Part shown: positions 1,505-61,691 of the stretch, piece by piece
Layout: every line of letters starts with the position of its first letter
How positions within the stretch are numbered: position 1 is the first letter of the stretch
The notes under the pieces: model-generated
Seen by the model: the letters and a program-made list of their open reading frames with translations, nothing else
What the model was told of the DNA's origin: nothing
The model's database searches: none
Origin: Candidatus Desantisbacteria bacterium CG1_02_49_89
Lineage (GTDB): Bacteria; Desantisbacteria; UBA1551
Assembly: GCA_001871075.1 (NCBI GenBank)
Contig: MNUP01000143.1
Location: 1-62,376 of the forward strand
Reading direction: 5' to 3'
Length of the DNA: 62,376 nt
Position numbers and translations under genes: made by a program

Positions 1505-1850
1505 AACCCCCTGCAGTCCGATGCAACATCGGACTCAATGCAGGGGCCTGCGCCCGCCAATATTCGTGGCGGGCTGCGGCACGAAAGCACTCCGCCCGAT
1601 GGCCATCGGGGCGGGTGAAAGCGTGCGATGAATCACGCCCCTACAAAGGGCGGGCAAGCCCGCCCTTACGTAAAAATGTCCCGATGAATCGGGACCGCTA
1701 CAGAAACACGCAAGCCTACCCCCGCAGACCTCCCTCCTAAAAGATTTGCACCTTAAATATTGGCGCATCCGCCAATTCTTAAGGCGGAGGCGGGCTGGGC
1801 GGGGGTCTTCGAAAAGCCCTGAGTTACGAAATCTCTTTGATTTGACACTT
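1505..1850 (-). repeat. REP/BIME-like mosaic of nested palindromes and GTAG+hairpin units
   Basis: Contains the 95-bp module also found at 2622..2709 and hairpin+CTAC/TTAC units at 1621..1644, 1648..1669 and 1678..1701. It also holds a ~90-bp palindromic module (1725..1816) repeated in inverse orientation at 7601..7686. Confidence 0.8.
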
Positions 1851-3031: not shown

Positions 3032-3200
3032 TTTTTTACAGGGATCTTCGATAGAGATTTAAAATACAGTCATTTGTCCCACCCAGTAAGATTTCCTCCT
3101 TAAAGACTGGCGGACAAGGACGGGCAGGCATTAGTCATTTGTCATGAGTAAAAAACCATGGCTGAAACTATTAAATCTCTTTCGTAAGATCACTGAAAAG
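3032..3200. mobile_element. MITE-like inverted pair of TTTTACAGGGAT units with ~110-bp interior
   Basis: ttttttacagggatcttcgatagagatttaa (left) faces ttaaatctctttcgtaagatcactgaaaag (right, 3171..3200). The interior carries agtcatttgtc words twice. Confidence 0.55.
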
Positions 3201-3809: not shown

Positions 3810-3977
3810 ATATGGGATATTAAATTCCAGTACAATCCTGTTAAAGACTTTTTTACAGGGAACTTAAGAGAACTTAGATTGCTTTTAAATCACTGTGAAA
3901 AGCCTTTAAAGCATTTACAGGGATCTTCGAACGGGATTTAGACTGCTGTTTTCAGGGCTCCCACCTTAAGAATACAT

Positions 3978-4246
3978 CAGGGCTGAAGCCCTGAGTTACG
4001 AAATACGCGGGCTTGATAAATCAAGCCCCTACAAACGTGCGATGAATCGCACCGCTACAAAGGGCGGGTGAAATATCCGGGCTCAATGAATTGAGCACCT
4101 ACATACACGCAGGCTTAAGCCTGCGGCTACAAAGGGCGGGCAACCGCCCATGAGATGGGCGAGTTCTCTGAAGCCCGCCCCTACGTAAAAATGTCCCGAT
4201 GAATCTTATCCCTGCAGCGCCTCCGGCGCTTAATGCAGGGACCTAC
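3978..4246 (-). repeat. Head-to-tail array of 7 GTAG+hairpin (REP/BIME-like) units
   Basis: Seven different GC-rich stem-loops are each followed on the + strand by CTAC/TTAC (unit ends near 3999, 4032, 4058, 4102, 4130, 4184 and 4246). Confidence 0.8.
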
Positions 4247-6228: not shown

Positions 6229-6385
6229 GTTTGAAATCCTCCTTTCCTTTTAGAAGATGATTACAGCGATTAAAGACCGATGTCAGCGATAAAAACATTT
6301 TTTACAGGGATCTTCGAACGGGATTTAAACTACTGATATCAGGGCTGAAGCCCTGAGTTACGAAAGCTGTAACTGTAATAAATCA

Positions 6386-7440: not shown

Positions 7441-7858
7441 TTTCGCGGGTAGCGAACCCTTGTATCGTGCATCGTAACATCGTAGCATCGCCCGCCCCGA
7501 TGGTCCTCGGGGCGAGGTCTCGCCCCAAAGGGGCGGATAACATCGTTTTTTAGATACATCAGGGCTGAAGCCCTGAGTTACGCAAACTGTAACTATAACT
7601 CAGACCTTTTCGAAGACCCGCCTCCGCCTTAAGAATTGGCGGATGCGCCAATATTTAAGGTGCAAATCTTTAAGGATGGAGGTCTGATAAATACATCAGG
7701 GCGAGCCCTCGCCCCTTTGGGGCGGGCGAAATACGCGGGCTTGATAAATCAAGCCCCTACACCGCAAAGTTACCCCCGCAGACCTCCCTCCTAATAAAAC
7801 TGGCGGGTCTTCGAAAAGGTCTGCCCTACGAAAACACGCAAAGCTACTACGAAAGATG
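7441..7858 (-). repeat. REP/BIME-like mosaic (word array, GC hairpins, inverted copy of the 1725..1816 module)
   Basis: Contains atcgt words (7462..7490), the hairpin family copy at 7560..7582, the palindromic module at 7601..7686 and hairpin+CTAC units at 7737..7760 and 7819..7829. Confidence 0.8.
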
Positions 7859-9598
7859 TTATGGGGCTGAAGCCCCTACTCCCAAAACTGCGGCTTTAAG
7901 GAAAGATTCGACTTCACCTGCCGTGGAAAAATTCATTGCTTTTTCAGCGATAATTTTCGCTTCGCTTAGTTTCGTATTGTTAATGACCTGCTTTACCGCC
8001 GGTATCGAGAACGGGCCCATGCTGAACTCGTCCAGACCCATACCGACAAGCAAGGGCACGAAAAACGGGTCACCCGCCATCTCACCGCACATGCTGACCT
8101 TTATGCCCGCGTTATGCCCGCCTGCTATCACCCTCTGCACAAGGCGCAGGACCGCGGGATGCAGGGGCTCGTAAAGATAGGCTATTTTTTCATTTACCCT
8201 GTCTATGCCAAGCGCGTACTGGATAAGGTCATTTGTCCCGATGCTGAAAAATTTCGCTTCCTTTGCCAGCAGGTCGGCTATCATAACCGCGGACGGGACC
8301 TCTATCATAACCCCGACCTCCAGGCCCCGGTTGAATTCAACGCCTTGCGAAGAAAGCTCCTCCCTCACGGAATCCAGGATGCGGTTTGCCCTCCTGAGCT
8401 CATCCATGCCCGAGATCAGCGGGTACATTATTTTTAGATTACCGAACGCGCTCGCGCGCAGGATCGCGCGCAGCTGGACCCTGAAAATATCCGCAAGTTC
8501 CAGGCACAGCCTGATGCCCCTGAATCCGAGCGACGGGTTTATCTCCTGGGACAGGTTCAGCTGGGAAAGGAATTTATCGCCGCCCAGGTCAAGGGTCCTT
8601 ATAGTCAGCGGGCGGGGGTCCATCAACCGCGCAACGTTCCTGTATGCCTCAAACTGTTCCTCCTCGTCAGGCAGGTCGTTACGGTTAAGGAACAGGAATT
8701 CAGTGCGGTACAGGCCTATGCCTTCCGCTCCGTATTGCAGGGCTGATCCAACCTCTTCCGGCACTTCTATGTTCGCCATCAGGCTGACCCTGTGCCCGTC
8801 AACGGTTATCGCGGGCTGCTCCCTCAGCTGGGAAAGCCCGGTTGATATTTCAATGAACTTTTCCCTGTCCTGCTTATACCTTAAGAGGACGTCTTCGCCG
8901 GGATTTACCAGGACGGTCCCGGTGTTGCCGTCCACAACAATGATGTCACCGGGATCAGCCTTTTGTGTGATATCCTTCAGGCCGACAACCGCCGGGATCT
9001 CGAGAGAACGCGCCATTATGGCGGTATGCGATGTCCTCCCGCCCATGTCGGTCACAAACGCGATAACCTTCTCCCTGCGCATCTGCGCGGTGTCCGACGG
9101 GGCAAGGTCTGCCGCAACCACTATCGTCTCTTCCTTCAGGTCCGCCAGTATTTCCCTTTCCCTGCCCAGGAGCTTATGCAGTATCCTTCTTCCGACATCA
9201 TGGATGTCAGCCGCCCTTTCCTGCAGGAACTGGTCTTTTGACCTCAGGAAGCTATCCGTGATCTCCTCTGTTGCCTCCCACACGGCAGCTTCCACGTTGC
9301 AGCGGCTGGCCTTTATGGTCCTGCGGATCTTGTCTATGAATATCGGGTCACCGAGCAGAAGGAGGTGTGCCTCGAATATCCGGGCGTTCTTAAGCCCGAT
9401 GGACCTCACCATTTTCTCCCTCAGCTCGTTCAGCTCTTTTCTTGAATCCCTCAGAGCGGCATCGAGCCGGGAAAATTCCTGTTTTATCCCTGCCTTGGGA
9501 ACAGTGTATCTCTTGATCGCAAAGTCTTCCTTATCCAGGAAAAAGGCTTTGCCGATCGCTATCCCGGGAGAAGCGGCTATCCCTTTCAATTCTAACAT
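7859..9598 (-). CDS. ptsI: Phosphoenolpyruvate-protein phosphotransferase (PTS enzyme I)
   Basis: MLELKGIAASPGIAIGKAF N-terminus, phospho-His region GGRTSHTAIMARSLEIPAVVG and a PEP-utilizer C-terminal domain. Start moved from the ORF start to the ATG at 9598. Confidence 0.9.
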   Translation of the reverse strand: MLELKGIAASPGIAIGKAFFLDKEDFAIKRYTVPKAGIKQEFSRLDAALRDSRKELNELREKMVRSIGLKNARIFEAHLLLLGDPIFIDKIRRTIKASRCNVEAAVWEATEEITDSFLRSKDQFLQERAADIHDVGRRILHKLLGREREILADLKEETIVVAADLAPSDTAQMRREKVIAFVTDMGGRTSHTAIMARSLEIPAVVGLKDITQKADPGDIIVVDGNTGTVLVNPGEDVLLRYKQDREKFIEISTGLSQLREQPAITVDGHRVSLMANIEVPEEVGSALQYGAEGIGLYRTEFLFLNRNDLPDEEEQFEAYRNVARLMDPRPLTIRTLDLGGDKFLSQLNLSQEINPSLGFRGIRLCLELADIFRVQLRAILRASAFGNLKIMYPLISGMDELRRANRILDSVREELSSQGVEFNRGLEVGVMIEVPSAVMIADLLAKEAKFFSIGTNDLIQYALGIDRVNEKIAYLYEPLHPAVLRLVQRVIAGGHNAGIKVSMCGEMAGDPFFVPLLVGMGLDEFSMGPFSIPAVKQVINNTKLSEAKIIAEKAMNFSTAGEVESFLKAAVLGVGASAP

Positions 9599-9667: not shown

Positions 9668-9800
9668 TTGAAACTTTTTACAGGGATTCAAAGAGATTTA
9701 AACTGCCGTTTTCAGGGCTAAAGCCCTGAGTTACTTATGTATGACGTACAGCTTGCCCGCCAATTTTACTGGGCGGGACTTACGACGCTCGACGGCATTA

Positions 9801-10076: not shown

Positions 10077-10165
10077 TTATGAATTATGAATCAAAAACAA
10101 GGATTTTTTATTTAAAATTAACTCCTTGCAGTTAATTCATAACTCATAATTCATAACTCATAATT
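10077..10165 (-). mobile_element. Short member of the ATTATGA-arm MITE-like family
   Basis: ttatgaattatgaatc (10077..10092) is complementary to attcataa words in 10134..10165. The core caaaaacaagg resembles caacaacaagg in other copies. The element covers the GH57 stop codon. Confidence 0.6.
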
Positions 10166-12323: not shown

Positions 12324-12400
12324 CCACGGAGACACGGAGGCACAGAGAATCAATTTCTTGCTTTCAACTTTTAACCTTTAACATTTAACTTTCAACTATT
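12324..12400. repeat. CCACGGAGACACGGAGGCACAGAGAA module followed by a TTAAC/TTCAAC word array
   Basis: The module recurs at 50311..50336, inverted at 20669..20692 and degenerate at 255..282. The word array at 12361..12400 resembles 14444..14487. Confidence 0.75.
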
Positions 12401-14091: not shown

Positions 14092-14298
14092 TTTTTTACA
14101 GGGATTCACGAGATTCATAATGCCGTCGTGCGTCATGCGTCGAACGTCTTACGTAAATACCGTCGTATGTCGTAGGTCATACGTTTAAAAGATTCATGCG
14201 CACGACGCAAGACGTACGACGTTCGACGTGAAACGAACGACGTACGACTTACGACGTAAGACGGAATCTAAATCTCTTTCGAAGATCACTGTAAAAAG
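14092..14298. mobile_element. MITE-like element: TTTTACAGGGAT-type inverted termini around a CGTACGACG-word hairpin
   Basis: ttttttacagggattcacgagattcataa (14092..14120) faces ggaatctaaatctctttcgaagatcactgtaaaaag (14263..14298). The interior is an imperfect palindrome of cgtacgacg/cgtcgtatg words. Confidence 0.6.
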
Positions 14299-14487
14299 CT
14301 TTTACAGGGATCCTGCGAGCGGGATTTAAACTGCTGTTCCAGGGCTGAAACCCTGAGTTACATTGCAAACCTAAAGGTTTGCCCTACGAAAACTAATAGC
14401 AGAGCAAGCTCTGCCACTACCAAAACACGCAGACCTTCTGGTTTTCAACCTTTAACTTTTAACCTTTAACCTTCAACGTTCAACCGT
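14299..14487 (-). repeat. Solo TTTTACAGGGAT unit, three hairpin+CTAC units and a TTCAAC word array covering the hprK stop
   Basis: Unit at 14299..14331. Hairpin units at 14340..14361, 14365..14387 and 14399..14420. Words at 14444..14487. Confidence 0.75.
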
Positions 14488-15421
14488 TATCGGACTGCAG
14501 CGCGCGCCTTTTTAGGCTCTCGTTGAGCTCGAAGGCGCTGAGCACGCCCATTTTTTTCAGGCGGTAATTCATTGCCGCGACCTCAATAATAATTGCCAGG
14601 TTCCTTCCGGGCCTGACAGGTATTATTAATTTAGGAAGCTGTATCCCCAGGATCGAACACTTGCTATCTTTCAGGCCCAGCCTTTCATAGGACTTGCCCT
14701 TTTTCCATTCCTCCAGGAAAACCACCAGCTCTATTCTTTTCTTGTCTCTGATACCCCTTGTCCCGAAAAGGTTCTTGATATCTATTATGCCAAGCCCCCT
14801 GATCTCCATATGATGGCCTATCATGTCGTTTGAACTGCCGCTCAGGGTCCTTCCGGGCTCTGCTTTCATCTTTATCACGTCGTCGGCTACCAGCCTGTGC
14901 CCCCTTTCGATCAGTTCCAGGGCAGTCTCGCTCTTCCCCATTCCGCTGTTGCCCTGTATAAGGACCCCCACTCCGTACACCTCAACAAGGTCGCCGTGGC
15001 ACGTGTAAACCGGGGCAAGCTCTGACGCAAGCGAAAAGGTCAGCTTGCTTATGAATTCCTGTGTCTCCATGTCCGTCGAAAATAACGGAGTGGAGTATTT
15101 CTCGCAGAATTTCAGTATATCGGGCGGCGGCTTAAGGTTTTTCGTCATTATAATGCAGGGCAGGTTTGTGGAAAAAAATTCGCGCAGGCGCTCCCTGCGT
15201 GTTCCGGGTTTCAGTCCGCGCAGGTACGAAAATTCGGTCATACCCAGTATCTGCATCCTTTTCGAAGGGAAATACTGGAAATAACCGCTGAAAGCCAGGC
15301 CTGGACGGTTTATTTCGGAAAAAACAACCTTGCTGCCAAGCCCCTTCCCGCCGGCTACCAGCCTGAGCCTGAGGTTTTTTTTCTCACTTTCAAAAATATC
15401 GCGGACGGTAAGCTGTGCCAT
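14480..15421 (-). CDS. hprK: HPr kinase/phosphorylase
   Basis: P-loop and signature GVGVLIQGNSGMGKSETALELIERGHRLVADD. 313 aa. Confidence 0.9.
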   Translation of the reverse strand: MAQLTVRDIFESEKKNLRLRLVAGGKGLGSKVVFSEINRPGLAFSGYFQYFPSKRMQILGMTEFSYLRGLKPGTRRERLREFFSTNLPCIIMTKNLKPPPDILKFCEKYSTPLFSTDMETQEFISKLTFSLASELAPVYTCHGDLVEVYGVGVLIQGNSGMGKSETALELIERGHRLVADDVIKMKAEPGRTLSGSSNDMIGHHMEIRGLGIIDIKNLFGTRGIRDKKRIELVVFLEEWKKGKSYERLGLKDSKCSILGIQLPKLIIPVRPGRNLAIIIEVAAMNYRLKKMGVLSAFELNESLKRRALQSDNG

Positions 15422-15530
15422 CCCACCCCCTATAAATCCAGTGTCCAGTCAAAACAATTATAAATGTAAAACAGATTCCTTCATTTTACATTTTTAATTT
15501 TAAATTTTTAATTGAACATTGTCACTGCAG

Positions 15531-16140: not shown

Positions 16141-16210
16141 TTTCTTTGCATCGAATAGACCTAAATTTTACATTTTACAATTTGCATTTTACATTTTGCA
16201 ATGATTCAGT

Positions 16211-18428: not shown

Positions 18429-18512
18429 TTCTTTTCCTTAAAAAAGATACTGGATCCTGGATACTGGATGTCCCAAAGGTCCCAAGGGGATCCCTTTGGA
18501 AGATCCCTTCGG

Positions 18513-18641
18513 GAAATGATGAAATTCGAAAACATTCTGTAAAACTGCACAAGAATGTTGCCCGAAGGGCAAAGTTATGAGTCAGGGCTAAAGCCCTGAG
18601 TTACGATTTAAAGCCTTGTTATTAATTCATAACTCATAATT
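18513..18641 (-). mobile_element. ~129-bp composite intergenic module (copy of 54743..54869, same orientation relative to transcription)
   Basis: The reverse complement aligns with 54743..54869 apart from a few mismatches and one hairpin loop (cttgtgcagttttacag vs ctcgtgtggcttgctg). It starts at the acpS stop codon. Confidence 0.8.
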
Positions 18642-19014
18642 ATTTTTTAAAAATAATTGCATTGGCGACCGCGTAATCCTTGCAGTGCGATATGCTGACC
18701 AGCACCTTCCTGCCTCTCAATCTTTTCTTTTGCCTTTCGCCCACCCTGACTTCAGCCACGCCGTCGCCGTTATTTATTATTTCAAAATCGGTCCACTTCA
18801 ATCCCTTGCGCCAGAAACCTGTTTTAAGCGCTTTGGCTATCGCCTCTTTCGCGGCGAATCTTCCGGCGAAATGCAGGAGCGGGAACCTTTTAGATCCGCA
18901 GTATTTCTTTTCATTCCCGGTAAAAACCTTCTTAAGGAAGCCATCTCCCCATTTCCTGAGCGCCGCCCTGATCTTTTTTACCTCAACGATGTCTATTCCG
19001 ATCCCTTCGATCAT
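18640..19014 (-). CDS. acpS: Holo-[acyl-carrier-protein] synthase
   Basis: MIEGIGIDIVEV N-terminus. 124-aa 4'-phosphopantetheinyl transferase. Confidence 0.85.
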   Translation of the reverse strand: MIEGIGIDIVEVKKIRAALRKWGDGFLKKVFTGNEKKYCGSKRFPLLHFAGRFAAKEAIAKALKTGFWRKGLKWTDFEIINNGDGVAEVRVGERQKKRLRGRKVLVSISHCKDYAVANAIIFKK

Positions 19015-19998: not shown

Positions 19999-20101
19999 CC
20001 TGTTTTCCAAACCGCCCCCCGTCCCTTCCTTGCTTCAGTATCAAGTATCAAGTATCAGGTATCAAGTTTAATACTAAAATTCAAATCTTCAGACGGGACA
20101 C

Positions 20102-21808: not shown

Positions 21809-21971
21809 TCTTTACCTCCGTAAATACAGTCATTAGTCATTTGAAAAAGATAATTATGAATTATGAATTATGAATCAACAGCAAGGTTTTTATTTCAACT
21901 GTATTAATCCGTTGTATTAATCCGTGGGTATCCGTGGCTGAATGTAGTTCTCCGGGAACTCTGTGGTTTGG

Positions 21972-29686: not shown

Positions 29687-29960
29687 TTCTCCTCCACTGC
29701 GTATCAACGTATCAACGTGTCAACGTGTCAGAGTTTTTACTCGTACATCGTTCTTCGTGCATCGTGCATCGCAAACAATTCTCTGTGCCGTAGGGTCATT
29801 GACCTGGTTCTGACCCGAAGGTCCCTGCGTTATAGCTCCGGCTTCATCGGAGCTGCAGGGAACTCAGTGCCTCCGTGGTATATCATTTATTCGTATGCAT
29901 CCCGCCTCTTCGGCGGATCGCCGTAGTGGCGACCGTCTGCATTTATACAATCCGTCTGAA

Positions 29961-37228: not shown

Positions 37229-37335
37229 AACACACCCCCAGGGCAAACCTTTCTGGGTCAGATACGCATGGATATAGATACTTCCAACGATATTTCAATC
37301 TATGAAATCTGTTTTTAAATCGTGTCCCTAAAGGA

Positions 37336-37436
37336 TCCCCGCTTTCTGCTTTCACCCCTAGAAATCGCGAATGCGATTTCAGGGACTCAAGTCCTGGAAA
37401 TGCTTTGCATTTCACAGGGTAAGAAAGCAGCGGGGA
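37336..37436. other. 101-nt four-way-junction palindrome cluster (candidate structured RNA or repeat)
   Basis: The closing stem tccccgc..gctttc / gaaagc.gcgggga encloses three hairpins: gaaatcgc-gaat-gcgatttc, agggac-tcaa-gtcct and gaaatgc-ttt-gcatttc. Confidence 0.3.
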
Positions 37437-37506
37437 TAATCAAGGATGGCATTTTTGTGCCATCTTAAATAATTATATCAGAAATCGACTAAAAGTCAAG
37501 GAAAGG

Positions 37507-37535
37507 TTGATTTTTTTATATATATATGATATATT
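37507..37535 (+). promoter_or_regulatory. Possible mfd promoter
   Basis: TTGATT, 17 nt, TGaTATATT in a very AT-rich stretch, so false-positive risk is high. Confidence 0.3.
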
Positions 37536-37628
37536 TAATATATACCCTTAAAATACAATTATGAGTTATGAGTGAGTACACTAATGAAGGAATTTCATTA
37601 TTTAACAATATAATTTAAAGGCTCTGAT

Positions 37629-49268: not shown

Positions 49269-49328
49269 CTGCAGTCCATGGTCCATAGACCATAGTCCAT
49301 AGCAAACAAACAATTTTTATTTGCTTAA

Positions 49329-50310: not shown

Positions 50311-50384
50311 CCACGGAGGCACGGAGACACAGAGAAATCTGTTCTGGTTATAAACTTGACACTTGATACTTGACTCTTGATACT
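50311..50384. repeat. CCACGGAGGCACGGAGACACAGAGAA module followed by a TTGATAC word array
   Basis: It starts directly after the acsD stop. The module is shared with 12324..12349 and 20669..20692, and the words gacacttgatacttgactcttgatac resemble 303..316. Confidence 0.75.
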
Positions 50385-52376: not shown

Positions 52377-52533
52377 TCAAGTTAAAATTCAAATTGCAAA
52401 ATGTCCCTAAGGGATTCCCGCATCTTGTCCAGATAGGTAATCGGGACTGCGGGAATAAAAGTCAAATTTAGCAGGAATTCCATAAATTTAAAATTTGAAA
52501 TTTGAAATTTGAAATATTTTTAAAGGAGAAAAC

Positions 52534-54738: not shown

Positions 54739-54742
54739 ATAA

Positions 54743-54882
54743 AATTATGAGTTATGAATTAACAACAAGGCTTTAAATCGTAACTCAGGGCTTTAGCCCT
54801 GACTCATAACTTTGCCCTTCGGGCAACATTCTCGTGTGGCTTGCTGAATGTTTTCGAATTCCATCATTCATAATTCATAATT
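54743..54882 (+). mobile_element. Full-length ATTATGA-arm MITE-like module between acsB and acsC
   Basis: Arms aattatgagttatgaatt (54743..) and attcataattcataatt (54866..54882) are near-complementary. The interior matches 18513..18641 and includes the 22-nt hairpin at 54780..54801. Confidence 0.7.
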
Positions 54883-54900
54883 AATCTTCGGAGGGAAACA

Positions 54901-61054: not shown

Positions 61055-61178
61055 CTTTTTCACAGGGATTTAAAGAGATTTAAAAAGATTAGCCACGGAT
61101 TCACACGGATCATATTAACGTATGACGCTAGACGCACGACGGTAGTTTAAATCCCGCTCGAAGATCCCTGTAAAAATG
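61055..61178. mobile_element. MITE-like inverted pair of TTTTACAGGGAT units with a word-array interior
   Basis: ctttttcacagggatttaaagagatttaaaaag faces gtttaaatcccgctcgaagatccctgtaaaaatg. The interior has cacggat and cgtatgacg words. Confidence 0.6.
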
Positions 61179-61616: not shown

Positions 61617-61691
61617 ATGCTTTGAACCACGGGTAAACACTGTTGTAACTCAAGGCTTTAGCCTTGATACAAATTTTCCAGGAGGCACAAG

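Follow-up and report, generated by a model that had tools for sequence, protein, structure and literature searches.

The window analysed here, a stretch of 62,376 nucleotides, corresponds to contig MNUP01000143.1 of Candidatus Desantisbacteria bacterium CG1_02_49_89, and the feature under study is an array of short tagged hairpins at positions 3971–4246, directly downstream of the minus-strand gene wzc, which resemble repetitive extragenic palindromic (REP) elements. Read on the minus strand from 4246 to 3971, the array is an unbroken series of eight units, each consisting of GTAG (GTAAC in one case) followed by a GC-rich hairpin. The units are 22–35 nt long: a tag left unpaired at the 5′ end (GTAG or GTAAC) precedes a GC-rich stem of 5–9 bp, which is capped by a TTYA loop and followed by a short tail rich in T. 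Beyond the array is a perfect sigma-70-type promoter (TTGACA-16-TATAAT, 3809–3782) that serves a downstream antitoxin/ParE toxin-antitoxin pair, which makes the array the 3′ spacer of wzc. The same locus is also found in assembly GCA_002323085.1, in the MAG GCA_002781065.1 and in several metagenome assemblies, and the PtsI protein encoded in the window is 100% identical to one that carries the name Candidatus Desantisbacteria at NCBI. The components of the array, in the order in which they are read, are as follows.

4210–4246, minus strand: unit 1, GTAG-GT-CCCTGCA[..GCGCC-GGA-GGCGC..]TGCAGGG, the loop of which holds a further hairpin, GCGCC-GGA-GGCGC.
4185–4209, minus strand: 5′-truncated GTCCCGA-TTCA-TCGGGAC unit with a ATTTTTAC tail; an intact copy lies at 1670–1701.
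4131–4184, minus strand: GTAG-GGGCGGGC-TT...GCCCGCCC-TTT unit with an interrupted loop; the uninterrupted form, GTAAGGGCGGGCTTGCCCGCCCTTT, lies at 1645–1669.
4142–4170, minus strand: 29-nt hairpin element CAGAGAACTCGCCCATCTCATGGGCGGTT, nested in the loop of the GGGCGGGC unit, its edges made ambiguous by flanking TTs.
4103–4130, minus strand: GTAG-C-CGCAGGC-TTAA-GCCTGCG-TGTAT unit.
4059–4102, minus strand: GTAG-GT-GCTCAA-TTCA-TTGAGC unit, followed by a 3′ remnant, CACCCGCCCTTT, of a GGGCGGGC unit (family D9/D18).
4033–4058, minus strand: GTAG-CG-GTGCGA-TTCA-TCGCAC-GTTT unit, matching at 21/22 bases a unit in a 38%-GC Desantisbacteria metagenome-assembled genome (MAG; locus L054).
4000–4032, minus strand: GTAG-GGGCTTGA-TTTA-TCAAGCCC-GCGTATTTC unit (family D18), with a 100% identical copy at 7728–7760.
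3971–3999, minus strand: GTAAC-TCAGGGC-TTCA-GCCCTGA-TGTATTC unit, belonging to a GTAAC REP family (D3) associated with REP-associated tyrosine transposases (RAYTs).

The stop codon of wzc (TAG, 4245–4243) falls within the GTAG of unit 1 (4246–4243), as an initial annotation of this DNA had pointed out. That annotation described a run of consecutive tagged hairpins, which holds, while its division of the minus strand is here amended to the eight units above. Its ‘ccctgca’ unit abuts the 5′-truncated GTCCCGA copy at 4185–4209, and its GGGCGGGC unit contains the nested 29-nt insertion, which is absent in two other assemblies. The ‘TTAC’ unit that it placed in one set with the others belongs to a separate and very widespread GTAAC family. 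The stems, which it regarded as unrelated, are indeed diverse under a constant tag and loop, except that three of them have a GA-TTCA-TC top in common and one two-unit block is shared between arrays. An element resembling unit 1, CCCTGCATTRAGC...GCTGCAGGG, is also present at about 2600–2650.

In 1000 dinucleotide shuffles, the region never contained more than three perfect hairpins or more than one tagged hairpin. The observed sequence contains eight perfect hairpins (stem of at least 6) compared with 0.25 in shuffles, and five minus-strand GTAG/GTAA-tagged hairpins compared with 0.006, an excess of about 800-fold. On the plus strand between 3961 and 4250, CTAC occurs six times and GTAG not at all, where shuffled sequences gave a mean of 1.3 and a maximum of 5 for CTAC. 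Across the intergenic sequence of the whole window, GTAG-tagged hairpins number nine on the minus strand (0.16 in shuffles) and none on the plus strand (0.06 in shuffles). The enrichment over shuffled sequence that had been anticipated was thus borne out both in the region and window-wide. The predicted RNA folds of the two strands of the array are equally strong (z −7.6 vs −7.4 relative to shuffles). Terminator-like sites between 1400 and 8000 were not enriched (10, compared with 8.2 ± 2.9 in shuffles), and only three units are weakly terminator-like. Searches against Rfam 15 returned no match at gathering thresholds, and at permissive thresholds only chance-level microRNA and small-RNA matches (E ≥ 0.06). 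Other classes of repeat were also considered. A CRISPR array was rejected, as the units differ from one another, abut without spacers and recur at irregular periods of 26–54 nt, and integron attC sites were rejected on anatomy. Intrinsic terminators were likewise rejected: the GC-rich hairpins are not directly followed by U-tracts of terminator length.

The grammar of the units was examined across fetched DNA totalling 722 kb. Of the 5-mers immediately 5′ to a perfect hairpin, GTAAC was the commonest (188 occurrences, the next 21), a count inflated by the retrieval of 84 of the loci with a GTAAC-unit query. TTTA or TTCA loops were found in 249 of 306 tagged hairpins. When hairpins were not pre-selected and the searched stem was excluded, 96 of 116 GTAAC-N7-TTYA-N7 strings had at least 6/7 complementary positions, 13 distinct 5′ arms being represented; once the 3′ arm was slid by 3 nt, none of the 116 did so. 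The tag and loop are therefore constant, while the inner stem covaries. Identical stems were found with either GTAGC or GTAAC tags, and GTAG-G-GCAAGGC-TTTA parallels GTAAC-TCAAGGC-TTTA. On these motifs, GTAG and GTAAC are variants of one grammar. The assignment of the units to the REP type or its composite form, the bacterial interspersed mosaic element (BIME), within the GTAG-tagged superfamily is supported. Several families per genome, degenerate tags and compensatory stem variation are all known for GTAG REPs (PMC3733652). The stem heterogeneity is therefore real, yet it lies within the described behaviour of these elements and does not set the units apart from them, as had initially been suggested.

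A direct link to a transposase was found for the GTAAC branch. An open reading frame (ORF) at 2327–2842 of locus L013, encoding 165 aa, adjoins a GTAAC cluster and matches the Pfam Y1_Tnp domain (PF01797, E 1e-13). Its homologues number 1704, some of which are called RayT or REP-associated tyrosine transposase in their sources. Doublets of GTAAC/GTAGC REPs occur on both sides of the RAYT gene at L013, L091, L092/93, L103/105, L107/108 and L114, which represent six Syntrophales-type lineages where the RAYT is single-copy. Wherever such a locus extends to both neighbours, the gene has a heavy-metal P-type ATPase on one side and an HtrA-type protease on the other, and in most of these loci a PALP-family gene is found beside the ATPase. 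This RAYT clade is highly conserved, with 61–94% identity among the 120 best cluster representatives, and the matches P0008, P0112, P0018, P0027 and P0091 all traced to Syntrophales-type loci. A single-copy, domesticated and vertically inherited pattern is that described for RAYTs (PMC5581495). With REPs of the GTAAC type on both of its flanks, the transposase identifies the GTAAC family as a bona fide RAYT-associated REP. The flanking units are of the GTAAC and GTAGC kinds and not GATTCATC-type GTAG units. A profile of 120 homologues searched against six-frame ORFs of the window and all fetched loci matched, among the latter, only L013 and L091–93.

The units of the array recur well beyond the host species. 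The exact 23-mer GTAACTCAGGGCTTYAGCCCTGA of the last unit, searched with one genome per species, was found at more than 84 loci among the matches listed (L007–L090 were fetched). Its hosts are Syntrophaceae, Syntrophorhabdus, other Thermodesulfobacteriota, the 38%-GC Desantisbacteria MAG and single MAGs named from six further phyla. Among the further host names are Zixibacteria, Nitrospinae, Methylomirabilota, Brocadiaceae, Acidobacteriota and Magasanikbacteria. At every locus the GC content agrees with the named taxon. The occurrence of the 23-mer across phyla could reflect either horizontal spread of REP-RAYT systems or, for the single-contig cases, mis-binning. In most of these genomes the usual form is an inverted doublet, GTAAC-TCAGGGC-TTTA-GCCCTGA-nnnn-TCAGCCC-TAAA-GGGCTGA-GTTAC, the halves of which differ by compensatory flips, a structure like that of BIMEs and of REPINs (the doublet form of REPs). 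The GTAG units also have relatives elsewhere. The 38%-GC Desantisbacteria MAG contains a GTAGCGGTGCGATTCATC[G/A]CAC unit head-to-tail with a GCAGAG unit, and GTAG-TG-GCAGAG is common in that genome. Deltaproteobacterial MAGs contain GTAG-G-GCAAnCC units as classical inverted pairs that have the tags at their outer ends. The GTAG units of the array are thus themselves members of multi-species families. The initial annotation had contrasted the units with classical inverted REP pairs, a distinction that was overdrawn to the extent that the same families form ordinary inverted doublets in other genomes.

Tagged units are not confined to the spacer downstream of wzc. Nineteen tagged intergenic hairpins were found in the window, the tagged units occupying ten separate spacers, and GTAAC copies number about 10 per 62 kb. 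The further arrays that had been noticed initially were confirmed at 1618–1701, 7728–7879 and 14339–14420, as was the reading of the last six ptsI codons as a unit. These and the remaining tagged units are listed below.

1618–1701, minus strand: array A, three head-to-tail units (GTCCCGA, GGGCGGGC, GCGTGA), from the nucleotidyltransferase stop to the Fic gene.
6339–6361, minus strand: GTAAC REP singleton in the wzc–wza spacer.
7559–7581, minus strand: GTAAC REP singleton in the ptsI–wza spacer.
7601–7829, minus strand: GTAG followed by the 22-nt inverted repeat CAGACCTTTTCGAAGACCCGCC (7823–7802; complement 7622–7601), read directly from the sequence.
7728–7760, minus strand: second, identical copy of the GGGCTTGA unit.
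7863–7879, minus strand: GTAG plus GGGGC-TTCA-GCCCC, forming the final six ptsI codons (V G A S A P).
9712–9734, minus strand: GTAAC REP singleton in the ptsH–ptsI spacer.
14339–14420, minus strand: array D, three head-to-tail units (GTAG-TG-GCAGAG, GTAG-G-GCAAACC, GTAAC-TCAGGGT) in the hprK–GH57 spacer.
18582–18604, minus strand: GTAAC REP in a leader repeat of about 130 nt, between divergent genes.
54780–54802, plus strand: GTAAC REP in the second leader-repeat copy, in a plus-strand gene block.
61645–61667, plus strand: GTAAC-TCAAGGC-TTTA-GCCTTGA variant, upstream of a plus-strand ORF.

The two leader-repeat copies are near-identical sequences of about 130 nt upstream of two genes (18429–18684, minus strand; 54739–54900, plus strand). 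Each holds heptamer repeats, the GTAAC REP and a TTGCCC-TTC-GGGCAA hairpin. The sequence may be a leader or regulatory region common to the two genes, or else a mobile element of composite structure. Another 45 or so perfect hairpins in the intergenic DNA of the window are untagged, and nearly all spacers are filled with short repeats of many sorts.

The arrangement of the units differs between lineages. Neighbouring pairs of tagged hairpins no more than 60 nt apart were distributed as follows.

Window organism: 5 same-orientation vs 1 inverted.
Sister Desantisbacteria MAG: 18 same-orientation vs 16 inverted.
All other MAGs: 11 same-orientation vs 67 inverted.

The Desantisbacteria together thus have 23 same-orientation and 17 inverted pairs, compared with 11 and 67 elsewhere, which makes head-to-tail packing a real peculiarity of Desantisbacteria. 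The inverted pairing of REPINs and BIMEs is not the rule in the window organism, and the early suggestion that a head-to-tail arrangement is atypical for REPs agrees with the counts from the other MAGs. In the deltaproteobacterial MAGs (L015, 1037–1100, and L069), GTAG-G-GCAAnCC with its gtctttt spacer is followed by an inverted partner, and at L098 (158–215), a locus with the repeats of the window organism, a same-orientation GTAG unit follows the same unit and spacer. This exchange of partner provides a direct example of a switch from the inverted to the head-to-tail arrangement.

Orientation relative to transcription is a separate matter. The initial annotation held that the units are locked to the transcribed strand. 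Within the window this is so: in unidirectional contexts the count is 11 co-oriented with the flanking genes to 0 anti-oriented, and the only two plus-strand copies lie in a plus-strand gene block. Outside the window the lock does not hold. Spacers of the sister Desantisbacteria MAG are about six co-oriented and eight anti-oriented, the count in other MAGs is 36 co-oriented to 47 anti-oriented, and L099, which carries the 27-nt repeat of the window organism, has one anti-oriented unit. Nor are the arrays within the window independent of one another. The transcription lock is accordingly local; it is unproven as a functional property and inseparable from array duplication.

Signs of turnover are abundant. 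The units at 4000–4032 and 7728–7760 are identical 35-nt copies with unrelated neighbours. The nested 29-nt hairpin insert (4142–4170) is present in the window and three assemblies and absent in two, L004 and L097, and this indel separates assemblies that are otherwise 99.8–100% identical. A second polymorphism, at about 463–507, alters the copy number of an 11-nt tandem repeat by 22 nt. Contig ends or runs of N occur at 4143–4171 and 2681–2716. Units have also been cut or split by their neighbours, as at 4185–4209 and between the 22-nt arms 7823–7802 and 7622–7601, which surround other repeats including the unit at 7728–7760. Arrays 1618–1701 and 4131–4209 have a two-unit block of about 55 nt in common, which shows that blocks, and not just single units, have been copied.

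The spacers that hold the units are also longer than those of related genomes. The operon hpf-ptsN-hprK-GH57-GH57-ptsH-ptsI is kept at L111 and L113, where PtsI is 71% and 67% identical, respectively, and its spacers there measure −4 to 57 nt. The corresponding spacers in the window measure 212, 109, 420, 164, 93 and 202 nt, with 507 nt after ptsI. The short spacers of the relatives indicate that the arrays are lineage-specific additions and not ancestral regulatory sequence.

We consider it likely that the array is a mosaic cluster of REP-type elements and that a Y1 enzyme of the RAYT type has spread them. Such an enzyme would mobilize the units as single-stranded DNA hairpins, and would read the tag, the shape of the hairpin and its loop, and not the sequence of the stem. 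Fresh copies would land next to or within existing hairpins. In the Desantisbacteria lineage these landings would share one orientation, so that arrays would grow head-to-tail, plausibly because each unit supplies a preferred T-rich/GTAR junction for the next, and two-unit blocks would additionally be copied between spacers. Because the arrays lie in co-transcribed spacers and at the 3′ ends of genes, they are expected in mRNAs as stable stem-loops. By analogy with the REPs of E. coli, these hairpins could shield the upstream mRNA from 3′ exonucleases, or could attenuate read-through or translation termination at the stop codons of wzc and ptsI.

Several observations weigh against this interpretation. 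The initial annotation had proposed a REP/RAYT reading, of which the element type stands and the RAYT link holds for the GTAAC branch in related loci, but searches of the window and of about 48 kb of additional, non-redundant DNA carrying repeats of the window organism (nine loci from a metagenome scan with an organism-specific 27-mer), about 110 kb in all, revealed no Y1 or RAYT ORF. A cognate enzyme is thus unproven for the Desantisbacteria genome and for the GTAG units. Each GTAG unit is present in only one or two copies in the roughly 110 kb sampled, so that a high copy number is unshown, and the left extension of the window (L001) contains no GTAG arrays. Among known REPs, the head-to-tail arrangement is a rare one (PMC3733652). 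Near-perfect stems contain six G·T and six A·C mismatches, a parity that does not inform on the strand under selection and gives no hint of a fold kept up on one strand in preference to the other. Any effect at the RNA level is proposed by analogy only.

The orientation of the units might instead be a historical by-product, either of block duplication or gene conversion, or of Y1 insertion into single-stranded DNA at the replication fork. This explanation we regard as somewhat unlikely. The two-unit block common to arrays 1618–1701 and 4131–4209 speaks for it, and IS608 and ISDra2, which belong to the same enzyme superfamily, are established as targeting the template of the lagging strand (PMC6006769). 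At about 37.4 kb, GC and AT skew, gene strand and tag orientation all reverse. The reversal falls in an AT-rich, palindrome-rich divergent spacer (37247–37628). However, GC skew tracks gene strand in every locus examined and therefore does not report replication direction, so that transcription and replication are inseparable here. No cluster of DnaA-box-like sequences was found at the switch, and nothing thus marks this spacer as a replication origin. At least eight spacers of the sister species have tags that run counter to gene strand and skew alike. In the window, the tagged units are spread over ten separate spacers, and most units lie outside the shared blocks.

A functional origin of the orientation, in which the units would be selected sense-strand RNA elements (3′-end stabilizers, attenuators or processing sites) whatever enzyme spread them, appears improbable. 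It would account for the 11:0 co-orientation and for the two plus-strand copies in a plus-strand gene block, as well as for units that begin at or overlap stop codons, the T-rich linkers after many hairpins and the three units flagged as terminator-like. It fits poorly with the sister MAG, where anti-oriented spacers are as many as co-oriented ones, and with the 36:47 ratio in other MAGs. The two strands of the array fold alike, the number of terminator-like sites is close to the shuffled expectation, relatives run the same operon without the units, stem mismatches show the parity of G·T and A·C given above, and no Rfam family was matched.

Less probable again, and in our view very unlikely, is that the GTAG units are not RAYT-dependent REPs at all but remnants or ends of other small elements, such as miniature inverted-repeat elements or palindrome-associated elements of the IS200/IS605 type, or palindromes arising from template switching, with GTAG either coincidental or merely a preferred target. 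The missing RAYT gene in about 110 kb of the organism's DNA would be explained in this way, as would the many untagged hairpin families and inverted-repeat elements in the same spacers and the restriction of RAYT flanks elsewhere to GTAAC/GTAGC units. Set against this, GTAG tagging is strand-specific and about 50-fold over shuffles, the TTYA loop and even stems are common to GTAG and GTAAC units, and in deltaproteobacterial MAGs the GTAG-G-GCAAnCC units are paired as classical inverted doublets. Chance or ordinary intrinsic terminators, to which only the position of the hairpins downstream of genes would point, have a practically negligible probability given the shuffled maxima of three hairpins and one tagged hairpin against the eight and five observed, the recurrence of the units in other loci and species, and the lack of terminator-length U-tracts after them.

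A broader scenario would extend the REP-mosaic interpretation across phyla, and we regard it as unlikely, if less so than a selected RNA function. One RAYT/REP superfamily, recognized by its tag (GTAG/GTAAC) and TTYA loop with a freely covarying stem, would have passed from Syntrophales-type Thermodesulfobacteriota into Desantisbacteria, and possibly into anammox Planctomycetota, Methylomirabilota, Zixibacteria and bacteria of the candidate phyla radiation (CPR). In Desantisbacteria it would have given up inverted doublets for an oriented, self-targeting insertion head-to-tail, giving rise within operons to sense-oriented hairpin arrays that are now used by the host at the RNA level. If true, this scenario would contradict strictly vertical inheritance of REPIN-RAYT systems and would define a new mode of REP proliferation.

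The spacers of the window also contain repeats of other kinds. Heptamers repeated in tandem, their sequence differing from spacer to spacer, occur at 10133–10165, 12361–12397, 14202–14263, 14447–14489, 15483–15513, 16165–16197, 18446–18469, 20037–20067, 21852–21875, 29741–29771, 49273–49302, 50354–50384 and 52484–52515, and resemble the short tandemly repeated repetitive (STRR) heptamers of cyanobacteria. Repeats of the form TTTACAGGGATCTTCGA(N4)GATTTA are found at 346–391, 2854–2899, 3035–3080, 3914–3959, 6301–6346, 14302–14347 and 61055–61083, often as inverted pairs around CCCTGTAAAA. They are organism-specific, being absent from 552 kb of other MAG loci and present in only nine Joint Genome Institute (JGI) metagenome loci. 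A long palindromic element, tgtcattgcgagcg...cgcaatgaca, occurs as two adjacent copies at 57–230 and is 97.7% identical at L101 (2864–3034). Between 32865 and 37246 lie three tandem paralogous genes of about 450–510 aa (families D1 and D4), whose internal segments are 61–77% identical at the DNA level and whose C-terminal segment is conserved and rich in cysteine.

REPs are among the commonest repeats in bacteria, and to our knowledge work on how they spread and what they do has been confined almost wholly to Proteobacteria. New in the present case are the host phylum, arrays in which units of mixed families stand head-to-tail and carry nested insertions, and the wide occurrence of a single REP sequence across phyla. 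Related species whose operon has or lacks the arrays offer a natural comparison, which makes testable both the effect of the arrays on operon expression and the idea that RAYTs read tag and shape rather than stem. The identical 23-nt REP in MAGs named from several phyla bears on the question of horizontal transfer of REP-RAYT systems. On the practical side, the arrays break short-read assemblies.

The nearest known systems are the GTAG REPs and BIMEs, namely those of E. coli and Pseudomonas and the SMAGs of Stenotrophomonas, for which 24 families have been described (Di Nocera et al., 2013; PMC3733652). Like these, the units described here are short palindromes rich in GC that carry GTAG, or a degenerate form of it, unpaired at the 5′ end, are extragenic and lie mostly downstream of genes. 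They likewise form several families per genome with compensatory stems, cluster into mosaics and occasionally overlap the 3′ ends of genes. Unlike them, they are arranged head-to-tail, have a conserved TTYA loop, include one GTAAC branch and reside in Desantisbacteria. As in REPIN-RAYT systems (Bertels and Rainey, 2011, PMC3116915; Bertels et al., 2017, PMC5581495), the inverted doublets of related MAGs flank a single-copy, syntenic Y1 RAYT. In the window organism, by contrast, doublets are rare (one, at L101), singletons and head-to-tail runs dominate, and no RAYT was seen in about 110 kb; moreover, REPINs are described as strictly lineage-bound, whereas the identical 23-nt REP is found in MAGs named from several phyla. 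Elements of the IS200/IS605 type and their palindrome-associated derivatives share the Y1 HUH superfamily, subterminal hairpins with a short guide or target tetranucleotide, and orientation-specific insertion into single-stranded DNA. They differ from the units here, which are single hairpins of 22–35 nt without paired ends around a passenger and without a nearby tnpA or tnpB. Interleaved small repeats and insertions of repeat into repeat are also found in the dRS3/CGTC-1 clusters of Neisseria and the GTAG-23 blocks of Thermomicrobium roseum (PMC3733652), but those clusters have other tags, sequences and hosts, and in the window it is the internal spacers of a conserved housekeeping operon that have been inflated.

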